Of a stretch of DNA of 62,571 nucleotides, positions 31,876 through 40,938 are shown piece after piece. The stretch spans positions 1-62,571 of the forward strand of contig CALDPI010000235.1 of NCBI GenBank assembly GCA_937912045.1. The letters are read 5' to 3'. Source of the stretch: an uncultured Clostridia bacterium (GTDB lineage Bacteria; Bacillota; Clostridia; Oscillospirales; Acutalibacteraceae). The position numbers and the translations under genes are program-made. The first letter of the stretch is position 1; each line of letters begins with the position of its first letter. A model generated the notes under the pieces. It was given only the letters and a program-made list of their open reading frames with translations, made no database searches and was not told the DNA's origin.

Positions 31876-34800
31876 TTACTGAGCAGTTTGTTCTTTTTTC
31901 CTTTTCTTCTTCACAAGGAAGATGATAAGGAAGGTGATTGCGGCGAGTACAACAACCGCAAGGGCAATCATCAAAATGATGAACCAGGTTGCAAGTCGAA
32001 CAGGGGTGCCCTTCTTCTTGTACTTCTGTACAACCTTCTTGGTTGTTTCCTCGGTTTCGTCGTCGTCATCGTCGTCAGAATCGGTGTCATCTACGTAGTC
32101 GTCATCCGAATCGGTGTCTTCAACGACGTCGTCCTTCTTTTCTTCCTCGTCCTTCTGGAGGCCGTCTGTTCCAAGAACAGTATCAGCGAAGGTGAGGCCG
32201 CCCTTAGGCATATCCTCTGCAAGAGTGAGAGCATAACCGTTTTCTGCTTCGAAAAGACGGAACTTATCGAATACGGCTTCACCGTCCTTATCGTACATTG
32301 CGAAGGAAACTTCACTTTCCGCATAAGTCTTGAAGCTGATGGAAACAAGAGTCCATTCACCGCGGTTTATAGAAACATCCTGCGGGGTGCTGATGAACGC
32401 GCGCGGATTCTTGAGTGAAACAATACCGAACTTCGCGCTTTCGCCGTTGAGAGTTCTGTACCAGAACGAGAATGTGTATGACTTGTTAGCCTCAAGCTTA
32501 ACGGTGGGAAGGAAGTAATAACCCCAATTTGAGCCCTTATAGTGAAGCATCTTGTTGCCTTCACTGGTTACAACCTCGACAAATTTGCCCATACCGTTGA
32601 AGTCCTTCCAGAACTCTGTTCCCTTATCGAACATACCGTTCTTAATCAGGTTGTCAGATTCGTCGCAGGCAAATTTTGCTTCGTCGTAGTTGTAGGTGTC
32701 AATATCGGTGATGTTTACGCTTTCCTTCGCAGGCTTAGCGTCGGCGGTTTCGAAAATCTTGATATCGTCGAAGTACATTTCGCCCTTGATGCCCTGGATA
32801 AAGAAGTAAACCTCTGTGTTATCCTCGGTATTGAACTGATATGTACGGTTGTACCAAGTACCGTCGGGATACTTAATAGTGATTTCCTGCTTGGACGAGC
32901 CATCGCGTGTCCATTCGCTTGTTTCATAAGTCGACTTCGGATTTTCGAAAGGAAGCAGGTTCATATCCATAATACCGAAATGAACGTGCGGAACGACTGT
33001 ATCCGAATAGCCCATGCCGTAAAGGCTTAAATAATAGGTGGTGTTGGGCTTAACAGTTATTTTCTTAACGAAAAGGCCCTGGCCGCTTACCTTAAGCGAA
33101 GTGTTGCCATCATATTTTTCCTCTGTTGTGATGGTTGCAAAGCCTGTGGAATCTGCCCAGTAGGTTGCATTATCACAAGCAGCGTTTGTAATGAGGTTCT
33201 TTGCGGGGTCGCAAATTTGGTTTGCAAATTCTCTTCTGAGACCGAAGCCCGAAGGTGCAAAGCCTCTGTTAATTTTGTCATTTCTGACATAATCCAGATA
33301 GTACTTAGCGCAGAGCGAAACGTAGGTTTCGTTCTTGGTTGCGGTACTGAGAACAGGACTTACGAGTCCGCGCCACATATCATATTTTGAATCATAAACG
33401 CCATCCGCGCCGAATACCTTTGCAGCAACGTCTACAATCGCCGAGTTGAGAACGCCGATTCTGTAGCTGTCGATAACCGCAGCAGCCGCTGCGACGTCGT
33501 CGGGTAATGCGTGGATTGTAAGACCGTCAACGTAGATTGCCTTTCCTGCGGAAAGCACGCTTGTATCAAACTCGATAAAGTTTGCATAGTCGCCTGCGTT
33601 GATAATGGCAGTAACCTTGGTCCAGCCGTTATTATTAGCAGCCGTCTTAATGGTGCGTGTCGATACGCCGTTGCTTACGAGGTCGGCGGTTACCTTGTCT
33701 GCCGACTGGAAGCCTGCGGTCTTAACCCAGTATGTGACGAGATAGTAGTTACCATAGGAAACTGCAGGCAATGTAATCTTGCCGTTCTGTGCAGTAACCT
33801 CAAACACCTTAGAGCCGTACTTTGCAGAAGAATTTGCGGTGCCGCTCTGCTCGAACGAGCCGTCAGTTGCAAGGTTGCCTTCAAGGCCAAACTCATATCC
33901 GTCAACGGCGGGTGTTGTGGCGGCGGTGGTCTTCTTGTAAAGAATCTTGCCTGCCTCAAGGCACTCTGCGCCATATGCAGACTCAAGCTTGTAAACGGCA
34001 ATATCGTCTACATAGCCCTTTGTCTGAGAGTATAAGCTGAGGTTAGGCTCAGAGAAGGTGGAAGCACCTGTGTAGATGAGCATGGTTACTCTCTGCCAGG
34101 AGTTCTTGCTGCCGAATATGCCGTATCTTATGTTAAGGTTTGCGCCTGTTGAGGACTGGAAGCGCATTTCTGCATCGTTTCCTTCAACCTTAATCCAGAA
34201 GGTAACAGCATAGTAGGAGCTGGGCTCCATCTTGGGTAGCGGTATGCAGTAGTTTTGAACTTCGCTGCCCGGCAGTACGATAGCACCCGAGCCGTCGTTT
34301 GTGTGCGAAACCGTGGTATCATTACTCAAAATTCCGCGTGCCTTGGGGCTGAACCACATATTCGGCTTGGTAGCACCTGCATTAAACTGCTGATACTTGT
34401 TAACCGCCTTGCCCCAAATTGCGTTTGCGTTTGCAACGCCGGAGCCTGTGGTTTCGTTCTGATAATATGCCTTATAGGTGCCGTCTGGGTTAAATTCCTT
34501 AACCGTCGGGTCGGGAACAAGGTTGGTTCCGAGTGTAGACCAATCTAAATCAGAATAGTCATAAATTGTTTCGCCCTTGGTTGCGTTCTTATAAACGGCA
34601 ACAAACTCGGGGTCAACAGGCGGGTCAGGCTCCTTAGCGGGTGCCTGTGTCGGGTCAACGCCGTCAGCAACCAGCTTGCCTGCGGTGAGGCACTGGAGTG
34701 CATACTCATCATTTGTCAGCTTGTAAACAGCAACATCGTCAACAAAGCCAACAGAGTTGTTGTAAATTTCGATGAACGGGTCTGCATGTGTCTTGTCAGC

Positions 34801-37413
34801 CATGTAAACCAAGAAGGTTACACGCTTCCAGTTCTGCGAATCAAACTTGCTATAGTTTGTTTCGATGGCCATCTGGTCGCTGCCACCCGCGGTCTTATAC
34901 AAGCGGATGTTGTGATTTTTGCTCGAAACAAACTTAACCCAGAAGGTAATAACGTAGGTGTTGTTTGCCTCCATCTTGGGCAACGGTAAGCGGTAGTTGA
35001 ACTGATTCTTCTTCATTATAATCGCGCCGGAGCCGTCATCTGTGTGAGAATACTTTGTCTCACTTGTGAGCGCGCCGTTCGGCTTCGCACCACCGTAGTT
35101 AGTCAGACCGCTTGCATTCGTATGGAATGCCTGCCAGTTGTTAGCAGCTCTGCCCCACCAAGCGTTTTCGTTGGCAACGCCTGTGCCTGCGGCTTCATCA
35201 GCATAGTATGCCTTGTATGTGCCGTCAGCGTTAAACTCCTTAACTGTCGGGTCGGTGATGAGGTTTGTGCCGAGAGAAGTCCAATCAACATTACCGTCAT
35301 AGAGATACGGCCAGTTGCTTGAGTTTAAGGTTACGTCCTTATACGTTGCAGTAGCCGGGAAAGTAGGTCTTTGAATATTTTCAATAAGTTTGCTTTCGTC
35401 AATGCACTGCTTTGTATATGCATCATCAAGGGGCTGAACGTTGATATCGTCAATGACAGCGCCTGTGCTGCTGAGATAAATTCTCATAGAATAGTTGGAA
35501 GCAGCGTTTTCACCTGTGTAGTAGAACCAGGTGACTCTCTGCCAGCCCTTAGAATAAGAGGTCTGTTTCTTAGAGAGCTCTGCAAGACTTCCGTTAAAGA
35601 TTTGGGTGGTCAGGGTCGAATCGGCAGCCAGGTTAACCCAGGCAGAAATTACATAACCCTTCTTTGCCTCCATCTTGGGCAGCGGCAGATAAACCTGCTG
35701 CTCGCCGCTTGAGGGCATTGTGATAACACCGGAATTATCCGCGGTGTGTGAAAGTGCGCTGTTGTTAGAGAGAAGGCCGCGAGCCTTGGGGCTCTTATAA
35801 ACGTTAACGTTAGCAGAAAACGCCTGATATTTGTTAACGGCCTTGCCCCACCAAGCATTTGCATTGGCAACGTCTGTGCCTGTGGCTTCATCAACATAGT
35901 ATGCCTTGTAGGTGTTGCCGTCGAATTCCTTAACAGTCGGGTCGGTAACGATTGTTGCGCCGAACTGTGCGAAATCAACATACTTAGTGTCGGCAGGTAA
36001 TACGTTGAATATCTTGCTTTCGTTGGGGAGCTCAACAGGCGGTGTTGCAGGCGGGGTCAGAGCGATAAGCTCTTTTGCTGCAACACTCTTGCCGCCGACG
36101 CCTGAGGACAGCTTGTAAACTGCGAAGTCGTCAGCATAAACTGTGCCGTTGTTGGACAACAGATAAAGACCTGTGCCGTGCGTGCCGTCGCAGTTGTTAC
36201 CGCCGATAGACTTGCTTCCGTAATAAAGAATGTAAGAAACACGTGTCCATTCGCCATTCGGATTAACGTTATAAGCATCCTTGAATTCCTTATTCCAGGA
36301 GAGATGATGTCTGATGTTTACCGTCGAATCAGCCTTAATCCAATAGGTTACAAGATAGTAAGAATACTCTTCTGCCTTGCTGTTGGTAAGACGGATTGTG
36401 CGTGAGCTTGAATCGTTAATTTCATACTTAAGCACGCCCGAGCCATCGTTTGTGTGTGATGCGGCAGTGTCAAGTGTGGGTGCGTTAAGCGCAGCAGGTG
36501 TTTGCCACATTGTAGCCGTCTGGCCGCTCAAAACAGTTCTCGAATAAACTGCATTAGGTGCAGTTGAAGCATCATAGGTCTTGTATGACGTGCCGCTGAA
36601 CTCCTTAACGGTCGGGTCGGCTGCAAGGTTCTCACCGAGAGCGGTAAAGTCATAACCGTCGGGGATTGCAACATCCGTCATAGCAGGGTCCGTTGCCGAT
36701 GCATAGGTTATATCATCGGGTGAAAAGAGTTTGCCCGCAGCAACAGATTTTTCAGCAGCAGCGGTATCCATCTTATAAACTGCAAAATCGTCAAAATATG
36801 CGGTGCCTGCCTGTATATATCCACCCATATTCATAGCCGTTGCATATGAGCCGGAATATACAATATAGGAAACGCGTGTCCAATCAGTTGCACCTGTAAC
36901 GATCGTAATCGATGCATCACCGGAAGGAATCTGGTTATAGCTGAAATAATGTCTTAACTGCAGTTGGGGTCCCTTGTAATAGAAGGTTACAAGATAATAT
37001 GTGTGTTGCTCAGAATTAGGAGCAACGCGGAAAAGACGGTGATTCGCACCTGATAAGGTGTACTTTAACGCACCGCTACCATCCTGTGTGTGTGAATCGG
37101 CGGTGGCAGAGGAATATGCTTCGTACACTGCAGGTGAACCCCACATGTCTTTATTTGTATTGGTGACACCTCCAACACCACGTATACCTGTTGTTGTATC
37201 ATAAACTCCACCAGTGAATTTTGATACGTTAGAATCATACGCAAGGTTGGTGCCGAGGGCATCAAGGTCAAAACCGTCTGCAATGCTGACAAGCTTTGCA
37301 CTTGGTGTGTCAGATGCCGTTTCTGCATTTGTTAAAAGGCCAAGAGAGCCTACAAGCACCGTAAGCGCCAGCACAACAGACAATATTCTGCCTAATTGTT
37401 TTTTAATAATCAT
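31876..37413 (-). CDS. Giant (1845 aa) secreted, C-terminally membrane-anchored multi-module putative glycan-binding surface protein
   Basis: GAGGT SD and signal peptide ...LLTNA/ET. Five long modules plus three shorter CBM_4_9-like modules (NLIKNGMFD-type starts). An acidic spacer, a TM helix and a KKKRKK tail follow. Confidence 0.85.
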   Translation of the reverse strand: MIIKKQLGRILSVVLALTVLVGSLGLLTNAETASDTPSAKLVSIADGFDLDALGTNLAYDSNVSKFTGGVYDTTTGIRGVGGVTNTNKDMWGSPAVYEAYSSATADSHTQDGSGALKYTLSGANHRLFRVAPNSEQHTYYLVTFYYKGPQLQLRHYFSYNQIPSGDASITIVTGATDWTRVSYIVYSGSYATAMNMGGYIQAGTAYFDDFAVYKMDTAAAEKSVAAGKLFSPDDITYASATDPAMTDVAIPDGYDFTALGENLAADPTVKEFSGTSYKTYDASTAPNAVYSRTVLSGQTATMWQTPAALNAPTLDTAASHTNDGSGVLKYEINDSSSRTIRLTNSKAEEYSYYLVTYWIKADSTVNIRHHLSWNKEFKDAYNVNPNGEWTRVSYILYYGSKSIGGNNCDGTHGTGLYLLSNNGTVYADDFAVYKLSSGVGGKSVAAKELIALTPPATPPVELPNESKIFNVLPADTKYVDFAQFGATIVTDPTVKEFDGNTYKAYYVDEATGTDVANANAWWGKAVNKYQAFSANVNVYKSPKARGLLSNNSALSHTADNSGVITMPSSGEQQVYLPLPKMEAKKGYVISAWVNLAADSTLTTQIFNGSLAELSKKQTSYSKGWQRVTWFYYTGENAASNYSMRIYLSSTGAVIDDINVQPLDDAYTKQCIDESKLIENIQRPTFPATATYKDVTLNSSNWPYLYDGNVDWTSLGTNLITDPTVKEFNADGTYKAYYADEAAGTGVANENAWWGRAANNWQAFHTNASGLTNYGGAKPNGALTSETKYSHTDDGSGAIIMKKNQFNYRLPLPKMEANNTYVITFWVKFVSSKNHNIRLYKTAGGSDQMAIETNYSKFDSQNWKRVTFLVYMADKTHADPFIEIYNNSVGFVDDVAVYKLTNDEYALQCLTAGKLVADGVDPTQAPAKEPDPPVDPEFVAVYKNATKGETIYDYSDLDWSTLGTNLVPDPTVKEFNPDGTYKAYYQNETTGSGVANANAIWGKAVNKYQQFNAGATKPNMWFSPKARGILSNDTTVSHTNDGSGAIVLPGSEVQNYCIPLPKMEPSSYYAVTFWIKVEGNDAEMRFQSSTGANLNIRYGIFGSKNSWQRVTMLIYTGASTFSEPNLSLYSQTKGYVDDIAVYKLESAYGAECLEAGKILYKKTTAATTPAVDGYEFGLEGNLATDGSFEQSGTANSSAKYGSKVFEVTAQNGKITLPAVSYGNYYLVTYWVKTAGFQSADKVTADLVSNGVSTRTIKTAANNNGWTKVTAIINAGDYANFIEFDTSVLSAGKAIYVDGLTIHALPDDVAAAAAVIDSYRIGVLNSAIVDVAAKVFGADGVYDSKYDMWRGLVSPVLSTATKNETYVSLCAKYYLDYVRNDKINRGFAPSGFGLRREFANQICDPAKNLITNAACDNATYWADSTGFATITTEEKYDGNTSLKVSGQGLFVKKITVKPNTTYYLSLYGMGYSDTVVPHVHFGIMDMNLLPFENPKSTYETSEWTRDGSSKQEITIKYPDGTWYNRTYQFNTEDNTEVYFFIQGIKGEMYFDDIKIFETADAKPAKESVNITDIDTYNYDEAKFACDESDNLIKNGMFDKGTEFWKDFNGMGKFVEVVTSEGNKMLHYKGSNWGYYFLPTVKLEANKSYTFSFWYRTLNGESAKFGIVSLKNPRAFISTPQDVSINRGEWTLVSISFKTYAESEVSFAMYDKDGEAVFDKFRLFEAENGYALTLAEDMPKGGLTFADTVLGTDGLQKDEEEKKDDVVEDTDSDDDYVDDTDSDDDDDDETEETTKKVVQKYKKKGTPVRLATWFIILMIALAVVVLAAITFLIIFLVKKKRKKEQTAQ
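33943..37275 (-). repeat. Five tandem in-frame copies of a ~185-205-aa protein module (aa 47-229, 253-449, 478-676, 708-914, 955-1157)
   Basis: Each copy has the same motif order: LGxNLxxDPTVKEF ... SHTxDGSG ... (LPLPKME) ... WxRV(T/S) ... (V/F)DDxAVYKL ... C..AGKL. At the DNA level, ccttaacNgtcgggtcgg recurs near 34498, 35236, 35928 and 36602. Confidence 0.75.
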
Positions 37414-37617: not shown

Positions 37618-38013
37618 CTATTCTGACCAGGGTGACCAGCCGTCCATATTCTCCTTGTCTTTATCAGACTGGGTGGCGGTGCTTGTCACCTGGGAGCTGC
37701 TCTGTGGTTTAGAGCTGCTTTGCGGCTTTGAAGAGGACGACGGGTTTTTGGTGGTTGACGTTACGCTGCCTGTGGCGAAATCAATCGTGATGTCGGGGTT
37801 ATCAAAGGCATTGTCGTCAATCGCGTCCTCACCTTGTGTTTCCTCCGACGACGTATCCGAAGATACGCCGTCGGTATTTGTTTCGTTTTGCGATTGTGTC
37901 ACTTCGCTGTCTGCATCCGAAAGGTAAACTGCTTTATCCTTTTTGCAGGCACTCAAGCAGAGCAAAAGAGCGAAAGCGCACACAAACGCAGATATTTTTT
38001 TGAAGCTCAGCAT
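37618..38013 (-). CDS. Small low-complexity lipoprotein (Ser/Thr/Gln/Asp-rich)
   Basis: The start is most likely the ATG at 38013. This gives MLSFKKISAFVCAFALLLCLSAC with a perfect lipobox, followed by a tandem SSSKPQSSSKPQSSS. Confidence 0.8.
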   Translation of the reverse strand: MLSFKKISAFVCAFALLLCLSACKKDKAVYLSDADSEVTQSQNETNTDGVSSDTSSEETQGEDAIDDNAFDNPDITIDFATGSVTSTTKNPSSSSKPQSSSKPQSSSQVTSTATQSDKDKENMDGWSPWSE

Positions 38014-38018
38014 AGCCC

Positions 38019-38153
38019 TTAACCAACAATAAAGGGAAGTGAGGTGGTTGGTTCCTGACCGCCGTCTGCTTCGTCTTCTTCGCCTGCACACATAGCGCGG
38101 TCAGCCATCAGGCTGATAACTTCAAACTCGGGAGCATCATATATGTTTTTCAC
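38019..38153 (-). CDS. Unannotated 44-aa acidic small ORF (MKNIYDAPEFEVISLMADRAMCAGEEDEADGGQEPTTSLPFIVG)
   Basis: GTG at 38153 lies 7 nt after AAGGAGGA (38168-38161). I hand-translated 44 codons to a TAA at 38021-38019. The ORF fills 135 of the 156 nt in this gap and ends 5 nt before the lipoprotein ATG. It is below the ORF-track length cut-off. Confidence 0.5.
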   Translation of the reverse strand: MKNIYDAPEFEVISLMADRAMCAGEEDEADGGQEPTTSLPFIVG

Positions 38154-38169
38154 AATAATCTCCTCCTTC

Positions 38170-40938
38170 TTAATTACTTACGTGGTTAGAGTACTTGTCG
38201 GACTTGATTGTATTAGAGAATACCAATTCGTCGTCTGCAGTTGTAACGTATCCAACTGCGGTGTACTCTACGTCTGCAAAGTTCTGTTCAACATTGTAGA
38301 GACGTACTGCGTACTGAAGCTCTGTGTTTTCAGAGTTCTTCCACATATACTTTGTGCGGTCAACGTACATAACGGCAATAACTTCACCTGCGTTACCAAC
38401 GTTAACAGCCTCACCTGATGCAATGTTATTTGTCTTCAGGTTGTTATAAAGTATATTGAAAATCTGTTCTCTCGTATATGAGGGGAGTGTTGCGCGGAAA
38501 GCGTCGAAATCGCCACGGATTACGAGTGTTCCGTGTGATTTGGTGCTCAGATTGTCTGTAACGAGTGAGCCAAACTGAATGCCTTTATCACCCGTTATCT
38601 TTACAGACGCGCCAAACGTTCCGACAATGCCTGAGGGGTATTTGAACTGCTTATAGCTGTAAGTGTCTGCGGTCTTTGCAAAAAATTGTCCGTTGCCAAG
38701 CTTTTCTGCCATTGTACCGCCTGTGGTTGCCATTGCACCATAAGGAATAAAGTAGCCTTCATCCGGTGTGATGGTGTATGCGGTATTTGCGGTAGCCTCA
38801 ACACTTGCTGTATTACCGGCGTTTCCAAGCAATTTGCCGGCAGTCATGCATTCTGCACCATAGTAAGCGTCAATTTCATACAAGCCAATGTCGTCAACGT
38901 AGGTTTCTGATTCTGCATAAATATTAATGGCGTTTGTAGCGGCGAGGTCAGACGTTCCTGTGCGAATGAGGTATGTATATCTGTTCCAACCTGTACCAGT
39001 ATTATAAACTCGCTCCTGAGCCTTAATTGCCGCACCGCCATTTTTGAACAAAGTGAGCATTGCATTATTTTTACCGTTTTTAATCCAAAGCGTCAAAACA
39101 TAGTATGTTTTTGCTTTAAGCGTGGGCAGCGGTAAATAAAGGTTTGTACTTGTAGTAGTCTTTAAAGCACCGCTTCCATCGCCGATTGTGTGTGAATACT
39201 GGTTATCGTTTGTTATTTTGCCCGTCTGCAAGCCTGGACCAATCCAGTTGCTCCAACCGCCCCACTGTCCTTGAACGTGGCTAAAGGAGGCCGGAACAGC
39301 CCACCAAGCATTCGGGTTAGCAACGGTTGAAGTTGCGTGTGTTGAACCCATAGATGCATAATAAGTTTTGTATGTGCCGTCTTCATTGAATTCTTTAACG
39401 GTCGGGTCGGGAATGAGATTTTCTGTGAGTGTTTCGAAATCAAAATCTTCAACCGCAGTGCCTGTCATTGCAGTTGCGGTGAACGAAGCAAAATCTTCAT
39501 CTGCACGCAAATCAGTTTCCGTTAAAAGTTTACCGGCAGTTACACACTTTGAAGCATATTCAGGGTCAAGTCTGTAAACACCGAAATCGTCAAAGGCAAT
39601 TTCACAAATGTTATATGTACCAATAGCTCCTGAATGCGTTTGGTTACCGGTATAAACAATATAGGTAAATCGCTTCCAACTGGTAGAATAGTTTCCTCCC
39701 AATTCTTTCCAGTTACCGGAAGCCCAGTTTTGGGCACAAACATGACGAATGTTACAACCGGTAGAAGATGCTGTCTTGAAATAATACGTTATAAGATAAT
39801 ATGACTTTTTCTGCAGTTTTGGTGCTATTTTAAGGGTCCAGTTTTTCGTTGTGCTATACACAATTGCACCACTGCCGTCATTCGTGTGCGAAACATCGGT
39901 TTTTGCAGAATTCTGGTTTTTAGGAGAACCAAACTCGTCGGTTGTGTAACCGTCTTCGCCCGCTCTCATTCCGTTGGTATCGTCGTAAACCATTGTGCCT
40001 GTTCCATCATCAACAAACTTTGAAACGGTCGGGTCATAAGCAAGGTTTTCACCGAGATAATCAAAATCAAAGGTTTCATACTGACCTGAAGATGTAAGGT
40101 TTGTAAGTCCTACTGTGTCACTTGTTATATATTCTTCTTTTCCGTTAAGAAGTATGTTTCCTGCATCTATGCATTTCTGTGCATAATCTAAATCAACTTT
40201 ATACTGCTCGATTTCATCAACATATACTGTTTTTGTGCCAACTTCTTCTACGCAAACATAAGCACCGTATCTGTCCTTATGGTTAACAGGGTCATAGCAG
40301 TAAGCCAATGCGGTAATACGCTGCCAATCGGTAGTTGCATTAACTTCAAATACGTTATATGTTCCGCTCCAGTCGTTCTTTGTATGGAGCTTTACATTAC
40401 CGGCAGAAGATGCCTTTATCCAGAATGTGATAAGATACCAGGAATCCGCACGCATACCGCTGCCTATAGGCATATTAAGACGCTTACCTTCATAGTCGTC
40501 TTCACTTTTCGGTGTAATACATAAAGAGCCGGAGCCGTCTGCAGTGTGGGATACGTTCTTATCTATTTGTCCTCGTCTTGCGGGGCCCTTATACTCTTCT
40601 TCTCCTTTGCTATAAGCGTTGTGCTTCAGAGTCGCTTTTCCCCAATGGGCATTCGGGTTGTTTAGGCCCGTGCCGTTTGTTTCGTCTGCATAGTAGGTGT
40701 CATAGTTACCTTCACTGTCAAACTCCGCAACTGTAGAGTCGGGGATAAGGTTTTGTCCCAAAAGGCTCCAATCCATATCTTCTTCGGTTGAAGAAAGAGT
40801 CAAACGTGACATTTTACAAGTTGTCGGAAGTGTTGCCGTTGCATCCTCCGCATTTGCCACTGCGCCGGTGCAGAAAACTGCCGACAGGAGCATTGCGAGG
40901 GTGAGTGCTAAGGAAAGAATTTTGCGTGTTTTAAACAT
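38170..40938 (-). CDS. 922-aa secreted multi-module protein, paralogue of the giant protein
   Basis: Signal peptide ...GAVANA/ED and AAGGAG SD. Three long modules precede a ~220-aa C-terminal domain I cannot assign. There is no anchor. Confidence 0.85.
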   Translation of the reverse strand: MFKTRKILSLALTLAMLLSAVFCTGAVANAEDATATLPTTCKMSRLTLSSTEEDMDWSLLGQNLIPDSTVAEFDSEGNYDTYYADETNGTGLNNPNAHWGKATLKHNAYSKGEEEYKGPARRGQIDKNVSHTADGSGSLCITPKSEDDYEGKRLNMPIGSGMRADSWYLITFWIKASSAGNVKLHTKNDWSGTYNVFEVNATTDWQRITALAYCYDPVNHKDRYGAYVCVEEVGTKTVYVDEIEQYKVDLDYAQKCIDAGNILLNGKEEYITSDTVGLTNLTSSGQYETFDFDYLGENLAYDPTVSKFVDDGTGTMVYDDTNGMRAGEDGYTTDEFGSPKNQNSAKTDVSHTNDGSGAIVYSTTKNWTLKIAPKLQKKSYYLITYYFKTASSTGCNIRHVCAQNWASGNWKELGGNYSTSWKRFTYIVYTGNQTHSGAIGTYNICEIAFDDFGVYRLDPEYASKCVTAGKLLTETDLRADEDFASFTATAMTGTAVEDFDFETLTENLIPDPTVKEFNEDGTYKTYYASMGSTHATSTVANPNAWWAVPASFSHVQGQWGGWSNWIGPGLQTGKITNDNQYSHTIGDGSGALKTTTSTNLYLPLPTLKAKTYYVLTLWIKNGKNNAMLTLFKNGGAAIKAQERVYNTGTGWNRYTYLIRTGTSDLAATNAINIYAESETYVDDIGLYEIDAYYGAECMTAGKLLGNAGNTASVEATANTAYTITPDEGYFIPYGAMATTGGTMAEKLGNGQFFAKTADTYSYKQFKYPSGIVGTFGASVKITGDKGIQFGSLVTDNLSTKSHGTLVIRGDFDAFRATLPSYTREQIFNILYNNLKTNNIASGEAVNVGNAGEVIAVMYVDRTKYMWKNSENTELQYAVRLYNVEQNFADVEYTAVGYVTTADDELVFSNTIKSDKYSNHVSN
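38830..40776 (-). repeat. Three further copies of the same module (aa 55-263, 289-472, 498-703)
   Basis: LGQNLIPDSTVAEF, LGENLAYDPTVSKF and LTENLIPDPTVKEF are each followed by SHTxDGSG, WxR(I/F/Y)T, DD/DE..YK/YR/YE and C..AG(N/K)(I/L)L. Confidence 0.75.

Follow-up and report, generated by a model that had tools for sequence, protein, structure and literature searches.

A conserved 44-codon gene of an uncultured Clostridia bacterium as a probable divergent precursor for a system of the linear polyphosphorylated peptide type

Linear polyphosphorylated peptides (LPP) were defined as a family in May 2026 (Popov et al., Nat Commun 2026, PMC13381572). The precursor, LppA, has 35-200 amino acids (aa), is present in one to three copies per cluster, and combines a conserved N-terminus, YxxPxVLxHQxIxFETxxS, with variable C-termini. 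The HprK-like kinase LppK places several phosphates on core Ser3, and the discrete recognition element LppB holds the leader Tyr and Pro through D70 and N33, the Y-x-x-P motif being bound both by LppB and by the B1 proteins of lasso peptides. The leader is removed by LppS, a SipW-like peptidase that depends on LppB and cuts after T-1 in the order F-3, E-2, T-1, and this LppS, which resembles signal peptidase I of the archaeal type, is the hallmark that defines the family. LppD is an MsbA-like exporter, and LppN is a nucleoside triphosphate (NTP) transferase, which showed no activity in the heterologous host. On what the peptides do, the study could only speculate about capsule and biofilm (PMC13381572). 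Here we analyse a small open reading frame (sORF) in a stretch of 62,571 nucleotides (nt) from an uncultured Clostridia bacterium of the Acutalibacteraceae (contig CALDPI010000235.1; the whole stretch is called the window), where it lies between the genes of a 922-aa secreted protein and a 131-aa lipoprotein. The sORF is a real, conserved small gene, and comparison of sequences makes it probable, although well short of certain, that it encodes a leader-bearing precursor, a divergent "satellite" LppA-like substrate of an LPP-type system that is encoded elsewhere in the genome.

The sORF and its two neighbours, the 922-aa gene and the lipoprotein gene, all lie on the minus strand, and coordinates are given accordingly. 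The elements of the sORF are as follows.

Positions 38161 to 38168, minus strand: Shine-Dalgarno sequence AAGGAGGA, as read from the sequence, followed by the 7-nt spacer GATTATT and the start codon.
Positions 38019 to 38153, minus strand: the sORF, with GTG at 38151-38153, 44 sense codons and TAA at 38019-38021; the product is MKNIYDAPEFEVISLMADRAMCAGEEDEADGGQEPTTSLPFIVG.
Positions 38085 to 38153, minus strand: predicted leader, residues 1-23 (MKNIYDAPEFEVISLMADRAMCA), with a boundary placed from the family columns and the LppA analogy.
Positions 38124 to 38141, minus strand: YDAPEF, an instance of the motif Y-x-x-P-x-[LFMIV] and the predicted contact of a PqqD-type recognition element, from the family columns and the binding of the same motif by LppB and lasso B1 proteins (PMC13381572).
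Positions 38022 to 38084, minus strand: predicted core or tail, residues 24-44 (GEEDEADGGQEPTTSLPFIVG), acidic and variable; the orthologue alignment shows [TL]-S-x-[PF]-F conserved close to the end.

An earlier note on the window had described AAGGAGGA 7 nt before a GTG, with 44 codons up to a TAA that lies 5 nt short of the lipoprotein ATG; these coordinates were all confirmed when re-read, and its translation of the sORF is identical letter by letter to that in the list of open reading frames. Its description of the sORF as unannotated is right for Pfam and NCBIfam, in which no model matches the peptide at E values up to 1, and does not hold for public gene calls, where orthologues are present, one of them as a "hypothetical protein" (JGI). 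Shuffled sequence contains AAGGAGGA 1.3 times on average; the 62.5-kb window has four copies only, each on the gene strand.

A single-sequence search of 5.8 billion proteins returned two clusters only, containing peptides 98% and 71% identical to the sORF product, and the single-sequence search for related loci returned one relative, an Acutalibacteraceae metagenome-assembled genome (MAG); a profile search added further orthologues (set P0001-P0006). Six orthologous loci were compared, namely L026-L030 and that of the congener genome G093. The gene order common to these loci is an AraC regulator, an enzyme with a GH5 domain and a carbohydrate-binding module (CBM), a secreted protein of 340-920 aa, the small reading frame, a lipoprotein of 131-146 aa and a giant CBM protein, and the synteny of the upstream secreted protein with the sORF is kept throughout L026-L030. 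A ribosome-binding site, AGAAGGAGGA or GGAGAG, is found 7-8 nt 5' of the ATG (GTG in the window) in six of six orthologues. In the comparison of reading frames that the earlier note had proposed, the frame of the sORF stays open across indels in all six loci and the other two frames hold 2-6 stops; non-synonymous change lies below synonymous change, with pairwise ratios (dN/dS) of 0.2-0.45 among the orthologues and a pooled pN/pS of 0.38 over the first 26 codons. The mere 44 codons, the GTG start and the missing Pfam or NCBIfam match might suggest a frame open by chance, or an artefact of gene calling between two genes, yet conservation of the frame, the ribosome-binding site and the amino-acid motif extends over species, genera and families and both alternative frames are closed in every orthologue, which leaves this explanation extremely improbable. 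In the European Nucleotide Archive record of a near-identical strain (L030:8135-8760), the 44-aa sORF is called in the public annotation but the lipoprotein gene, intact in frame 2, is not.

The peptide belongs to a larger family that is visible through profile searches only, a single-sequence search being insufficient. A profile search of 1.84 billion representative proteins yields mainly peptides of 37-50 aa that align from residue 1. Six-frame searches of 201 genomes of the same taxonomic family were positive in 26; elsewhere in the order, 18 more genomes, belonging to at least seven other families, also carry members, and a single genome can have up to six. With few exceptions, the six-frame matches are open frames of 37-73 aa preceded by an AGGAGG-type site. 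In the Oscillospirales the family counts at least 54 peptides, 34-61 aa long, and the consensus of 54 members reads M-K-K-x-Y-x-x-P-E-[LFM]-x-[VIL]-x-x-[FL]-x-x-[ED]-[DS]-x-[IML]-small-small-[SGDN]. The Tyr and the Pro of the motif are each present in 52 of the 54, and the further columns are [FL] at +10, [IML] at +16 and small residues at +17 and +18. The tails are variable and on average carry a net charge of -5, and 40 members have an aromatic residue among the last six positions. The window peptide, which scores 58.8 bits against the hidden Markov model (HMM) of the family, matches the pattern at every conserved position. The earlier note had likened the N-terminal pattern "YxAPExEVIxL" to short peptides of gut Clostridia, and this proves to be a real family that profile searches recover; the single Cys to which it also referred is present in the sORF peptide and conserved in the closest clade only, most family members being without it.

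Three observations on family matches are recorded here. In locus L072 (G092:C12, 4081-5129, minus strand), a cohesin-like secreted protein, a peptide, a lipoprotein and two more peptides form a run; the three peptides share [DE]FL[SV]SSP after the leader, and a pair of PqqD and peptidase genes lies 10 kb off. A family member at G197:C98:5433-5537, plus strand (L060), has an in-frame TAA after 14 codons and a lipoprotein gene after it, and may be a decayed copy. Matches to P0011 (1683 aa), P0018 and similar large proteins, the strongest that the profile search gave among large proteins, which hold up to 16 repeats that start with VVNLGADRSICQGS and match SLMADRAMCAG, were set aside as repeat-inflated chance; the resemblance of the VVNLGADRSICQGS repeats of P0011-type proteins to VISLMADRAMCAGE of the window peptide was likewise judged to be chance amplified by repetition. 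The C-terminus of P0011 looks like a sorting domain of the gliding-motility or type IX secretion type.

The connection of the family with maturation enzymes is seen in relatives. Stand-alone PqqD proteins (PF05402, about 90 aa) occur in 116 of the 201 genomes, and some of them adjoin family peptides. A recurrent cluster surrounds the PqqD genes and comprises an HprK-fold protein (235-300 aa, with weak matches to ScmC and HprK_rel_A), the PqqD protein, a signal-peptidase-like protein, an MsbA-like ATP-binding cassette (ABC) exporter and often one or two PF14907 nucleotidyltransferases. The cluster peptidase is a soluble S24/S26 signal-peptidase-like protein of 145-185 aa whose homologues match TIGR02228 sigpep_I_arch, SipW and Peptidase_S24/S26, and PF14907 proteins lie within or beside the clusters of G018, G041, G042, G043, G135 and G149. 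Peptides stand directly 5' of the HprK-like gene in G018 and G197 (two copies each) and in G041, with the PqqD, peptidase and ABC exporter genes behind it in varying order and NTP_transf_5 nearby; in G179 a family peptide is directly 5' of a run of HprK-like, PqqD and peptidase genes, in G043 one is 5' of PqqD and NTP_transf_5, and in G042 the cluster is divergent from a family peptide 3 kb away. A secreted protein of 530-1025 aa precedes the peptide in five of these six cluster genomes, the exception being G043. At the level of whole genomes, PqqD is present in 25 of 26 peptide-positive and 91 of 175 peptide-negative genomes (p = 7e-6), and an LppS-like peptidase in 21 of 26 and 56 of 175 (p = 4e-6), where the p values carry no phylogeny correction and the sample spans 185 genera. 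Of the roles that the earlier note had listed, that of a precursor peptide is therefore supported, by the Y-x-x-P-x-[LFV] N-terminus, by members 5' of clusters in five genomes and by co-occurrence with PqqD and peptidase, and nothing was found in support of a small regulator or chaperone.

Another reading makes the peptide a small partner, in the cytoplasm, of the upstream secreted protein, as its chaperone, inhibitor or assembly factor; it would be unrelated to PqqD-dependent maturation, with a structural YxxP strand that merely resembles the leaders of RiPPs, peptides made on ribosomes and modified after translation. No neighbour of the family, the maturation genes included, is as constant as the large upstream secreted protein (24 of 37 peptides, and four of four in this genome), the C-termini could vary in step with the upstream proteins, which are variable too, and the family HMM has no match to the characterised LppA. 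However, in five genomes the peptide gene has the large protein on one side and the genes of the kinase, PqqD, peptidase and exporter on the other, the genome-level association with PqqD and the LppS-like peptidase is strong, and a conserved head, a hypervariable tail and tandem copies (G018, G197, G092) are typical of RiPP precursors. We consider a partner protein unlikely, and favour the precursor.

The genome from which the window derives (G000) is a MAG, 83% complete and in 308 contigs; the congener G093 is 98% complete. The candidate maturation genes in the former are listed below.

C40:3-326 and C242:3251-3685, both minus strand: HprK-like kinase, split over the two contigs; the P-loop reads HSGTGKSTHT, and the peptidase gene follows directly.
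C242:2767-3234: LppS-like peptidase of 155 aa, with the motifs GSSMYP and VLHR, as around LppS S29 and H68.
C298:1101-1385: PqqD protein of 94 aa (PF05402, E 1.3e-14), its gene followed by that of an ABC exporter.
C298/C301: ABC exporter.
C105:3790-4986: PF14907 (NTP_transf_5) homologue, single copy, inside a polysaccharide-synthesis locus.

The two kinase fragments overlap by about 20 residues; the mismatches and the stop that the C242 copy has in this overlap suggest an artefact of the assembly ends and not a pseudogene. In G093, an intact HprK-like gene adjoins the peptidase gene and a 554-aa ABC exporter (ABC_membrane and ABC_tran, no peptidase domain) is directly 3' of the PqqD gene, and these two gene pairs (K-S and B-D) lie at separate places, with no precursor beside either. 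In a motif alignment made by eye, IITLNETGAFLF and AADIKKFV of the PqqD protein of the window genome line up with TKLN33GVGGF and EED70IEAF of LppB, and an Asn and an Asp occupy the motif positions of N33 and D70. Compared with Protein Data Bank sequences, this PqqD protein gives weak matches only, to the lasso B1 proteins TfuB1 and TbiB1 (E 0.2-0.4), and no LppB entry was found there.

From these elements we infer binding, phosphorylation, a cleavage site and export for the peptide. The N-terminal YDAPEF strand would dock on the discrete PqqD-type recognition element (LppB-like, C298), and the HprK-like kinase (C40/C242) would phosphorylate a Ser in the acidic C-terminal region. The leader would then be cut off by the LppS-like enzyme (C242), a cytoplasmic protein like signal peptidase I, probably near the junction of AMCA and GEE, a site predicted by analogy, with position -3 hydrophobic and position -1 small. 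An acidic product of about 21 residues would finally be exported by the MsbA-like ABC exporter beside the PqqD gene (C298/C301).

Several observations weigh against this assignment. The sORF is on a different contig from every maturation gene and not in a cluster, so to speak a satellite, and its link to maturation is one of family membership and genome content only; in a fragmented, 83%-complete MAG with the kinase split over two contig ends, linkage is not fully judgeable. The PF14907 homologue on C105 is unlinked to the other maturation genes and may be unrelated, and about a fifth of the peptide-positive genomes have no detectable LppS-like gene. The first half of the LppA motif, Y-x-x-P-x-[LVIF], is present in the window peptide and nearly invariant in the family, but the second half (xIxFETxxS) is absent from the window peptide, and the family has x-V-x-x-[FL]-x-x-[ED]-[DS]-x-[IML]-small-small at this place. 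The leader of P. alginolyticus LppA, rebuilt from the primers of the published study, scores -1.9 bits against the family HMM and thus does not match, and published rumen lasso leaders reach 8-9 bits only; because of these scores, the likeness to LppA is limited to YxxPx[LVIF] and to the architecture of conserved head and variable tail. A Ser follows the predicted cut directly in 24 of 54 family members and not in the window clade, whose conserved Ser occurs only in [TL]-S-x-[PF]-F close to the C-terminus. Because the enzymes are unlinked, the family HMM does not match LppA, the cut is placed by analogy only and the core Ser is missing, the peptide is filed as a divergent variant and the mechanism is proposed with confidence that is no more than moderate.

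A lasso precursor, with a leader like those predicted for rumen Firmicutes (MTYNKPSFEKISSFKESTM, followed by the cut and a Gly), was also considered. The N-terminus of the peptide resembles these published candidate leaders (PMC7533575, Table 3), the best solved relatives of the PqqD protein, weak as the matches are, belong to lasso systems, and the best NCBIfam models of the cluster PqqD proteins are lasso chaperones, below cut-off. However, a B2 protease (PF13471) above cut-off is found in none of the 26 peptide-positive genomes, that of the window included. Matches to the Asn synthase PF00733 occur in eight genomes, all on contigs other than those of the clusters and peptides; several of these homologues have 616-671 aa, as housekeeping AsnB does, and the window genome has one weak partial match. 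Because the B2 protease is missing in 26 genomes and the Asn-synthase homologues are unlinked, the system is the cyclase-free one and not a lasso pathway. Additionally, no Thr(-2) precedes any plausible cut, and Gly1 and Asp/Glu7-9 are not conserved among the orthologues, P0004 having Tyr there and G093 no acidic residue, so that a lasso precursor is scarcely credible. AgrD-type autoinducer precursors have an amphipathic, membrane-binding N-terminus and a conserved Cys or Ser five residues ahead of the cleavage site. In a comparison that covered features of the peptide only, such a precursor does not fit: no NCBIfam model matches at E up to 1, the N-terminus is charged and not amphipathic-hydrophobic, and the Cys is missing in most family members.

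The LppA-like precursor is preferred over these alternatives, and its surroundings may bear on what it does. The earlier note had placed the sORF between two secreted-protein genes, which is correct and proves to be the rule for the family. The neighbours in the window are given here.

Positions 38170 to 40938, minus strand: upstream partner, a 922-aa secreted protein with a signal peptide, three CBM-like modules and no anchor; stop codon TAA at 38170-38172.
Positions 37618 to 38013, minus strand: downstream partner, a 131-aa lipoprotein with the lipobox LSAC, a stalk of SSSKPQ repeats and the tail DGWSPWSE; ATG at 38011-38013.

The end of the 922-aa gene is 16 nt from the start of the sORF, the sORF stop is 5 nt (GGGCT) from the lipoprotein ATG, and the three genes are in three different reading frames; no promoter-like or terminator-like sites were found between them in the window. 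The protein encoded 3' of the lipoprotein gene (window 31876-37413, minus strand; 1845 aa, CBM_4_9) has an Asp/Glu-rich end with one transmembrane helix and the stop-transfer sequence KKKRKKE. The terminal helix and KKKRKKE give it a membrane anchor of its own, which the 922-aa protein lacks.

Across the family, a frame of at least 300 aa on the same strand ends no more than 60 nt before the peptide in 24 of 37 cases. These upstream proteins vary in kind (CBM-like, Flg_new repeats, BspA-type leucine-rich repeats, cohesin-like), and the full-length ones have signal peptides; no domain shared among them was found, all-against-all BLAST giving small homologous subsets and Pfam giving Flg_new, LRR_5 or Cohesin in some. 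In the window genome, every one of the four family members has a large protein encoded upstream and a lipoprotein encoded downstream, and three of the upstream proteins are full-length with signal peptides. The members are these.

C235: the sORF of the window.
C258:2010-2138, plus strand: family peptide between an upstream protein of 361 aa and a lipoprotein of 188 aa.
C271:1884-2027, minus strand: family peptide between an upstream protein of at least 632 aa, which runs off the contig, and a lipoprotein of 163 aa.
C178:4204-4350, plus strand: family peptide between an upstream protein of 1275 aa and a lipoprotein of 334 aa.

In the latter three the peptide begins 5-14 nt after the upstream gene, and in three of the four lipoproteins the lipobox is followed by a long stalk rich in Ser, Thr and Pro and by a short tail that is acidic and aromatic. 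Since each of the four peptides has a large secreted protein before it and a stalked lipoprotein after it, the sORF product probably acts at the cell surface together with its neighbours.

Some of the peptides and lipoproteins share their tails. The end of the C178 peptide, YDDDKNWADGPIPPRK, matches the end of the C271 lipoprotein (C271:1396-1887, minus strand), YDNEENWVDGPIPSRK, over the last 16 residues of each (E = 8e-7 against all reading frames of the genome), and in G100 (L047) the peptide end GIILPDEEW pairs with GIFLPEDKW of the adjacent lipoprotein (shuffle p at its floor of 0.003). These two pairs are clearly significant, and the pair in the window is not among them: its peptide tail PTTSLPF resembles the lipoprotein tails TTSLPEYY (G093) and PTVSIPDYF (C258) at p of about 0.01, which is not significant after 108 comparisons and is for this reason a lead and not a result. 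By eye, tail types look swapped between the window, where the peptide ends in PTTSLPFIVG and the lipoprotein (37618-38013, minus strand) in DGWSPWSE, and G093, where the peptide ends in DGPEWPEQE and the lipoprotein (L021:7958-8398, minus strand) in TTSLPEYYEGAY. Similar ends are also found in the upstream proteins of C271 (DFDSTIDSWME) and C178 (DFDASVDAWMAG).

A speculative extension, which we regard as doubtful, is that LPP-type peptides of the Oscillospirales are one leg of a three-part surface-display unit and not free antibiotics or signals. Under this proposal, a small peptide of its own would go with each large, anchor-less secreted protein, often joined by a lipoprotein built of a lipid anchor, a long Ser/Thr-rich stalk and a short acidic-aromatic tail at the C-terminus. 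The peptide core and the lipoprotein tail may carry interchangeable versions of one short motif, the tail may be the ligand that holds the anchor-less secreted protein at the cell surface, and the phosphorylated, exported peptide may be a soluble competitor that releases this protein or an adaptor that is phosphate-joined to wall or capsule glycan. If true, the LPP family, which has had no function assigned so far, would take part in building the cell surface. In the literature that was searched, the pairing of family peptides with secreted proteins and lipoproteins is undescribed, and it seems new; in addition, the triads and shared tails offer a concrete, testable idea of what LPP-type peptides are for.

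The short distance between sORF and lipoprotein gene has a further consequence. The lipoprotein gene is kept in all orthologous loci, the gap from the sORF stop to its ATG is 2-22 nt in all orthologues, and its start is without a well-placed ribosome-binding site. Because of the short gap and the poor ribosome-binding site, ribosomes that end on the sORF probably re-initiate at the lipoprotein ATG. Translational coupling, as proposed in the earlier note, is plausible in this sense as a secondary role, and it is compatible with a function of the peptide itself; the purely cis-acting leader peptide also raised there is unsupported because of the purifying selection on amino acids and because the same N-terminal motif stands before different downstream genes or none. 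A sORF that serves solely as a translational device, loading ribosomes for a poorly initiating lipoprotein gene and yielding a functionless peptide, would account for the stop 5 nt before the lipoprotein ATG and for the gaps and weak initiation sites of the orthologues. It accords poorly with non-synonymous change well below synonymous change, an N-terminal motif kept across genera, a lipoprotein downstream in about 10 of 37 family members only and four paralogues in one genome, and we judge it improbable.

With the sORF read as a satellite LppA-like precursor, the LPP family would extend to uncultured gut and rumen Oscillospirales, where the leader is too divergent for searches seeded with the published precursor. 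Two-gene enzyme modules, with several precursors scattered behind secreted-protein genes and before stalked lipoproteins, are an arrangement that is new relative to PMC13381572, and it offers a rule for finding the "hidden" precursors of apparently orphan kinase/PqqD/peptidase cassettes. For annotation, a recurrent and mostly unnamed class of genes of 35-60 aa is identified.

The locus may finally be compared with known systems. HPr-rel-A (TIGR04352/TIGR04353) and SynChlorMet (TIGR04248/TIGR04249), which are known as database models only, likewise combine an HprK-fold protein with a PqqD chaperone that acts on a peptide, and the cluster kinases weakly match ScmC and HprK_rel_A and the cluster PqqD proteins ScmD and PqqD_rel_X. 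However, these scores are far below the curated cut-offs, radical SAM/SPASM partners are missing here, and the models belong to other taxa. The phosphorylated or glycosylated lasso peptides of Firmicutes (paeninodin, pseudomycoidin) and the predicted rumen lasso precursors of PMC7533575 share with the present system a [Y/W]xxPx[LVI] leader bound by a discrete B1/PqqD protein and tailoring by an HprK-like kinase, a nucleotidyltransferase and an ABC exporter. The present system differs in that there is no B2 protease and no linked cyclase, the leader Tyr is not Trp, the Thr(-2)/Gly1/Asp8-9 pattern is lacking, and the leader peptidase is a serine signal-peptidase homologue.

The LPP system shares with the one described here the HprK-like kinase, the discrete PqqD protein, the signal-peptidase-I-like leader peptidase, the MsbA-like exporter and, in the clusters of relatives, the NTP transferase, all without a cyclase, in addition to a Tyr-type Y-x-x-P-x-[LVIF] leader, a conserved head with highly variable tails, and one to three precursors per cluster. 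The published clusters are mainly from Bacilli and lie in capsule loci, and PMC13381572 makes no mention of Clostridia, of satellite or dispersed precursors, or of surface proteins or lipoproteins. The leader of the Oscillospirales, M-K-K-x-Y-x-x-P-E-L-x-V-x-x-F-x-x-E-D-V-I-x-T-S, differs from the YxxPxVLxHQxIxFETxxS of LppA. In the genus of the window, unlike in the published clusters, the machinery is split into the K-S and B-D gene pairs, and the precursors are all dispersed behind secreted-protein genes, usually with a lipoprotein gene next.

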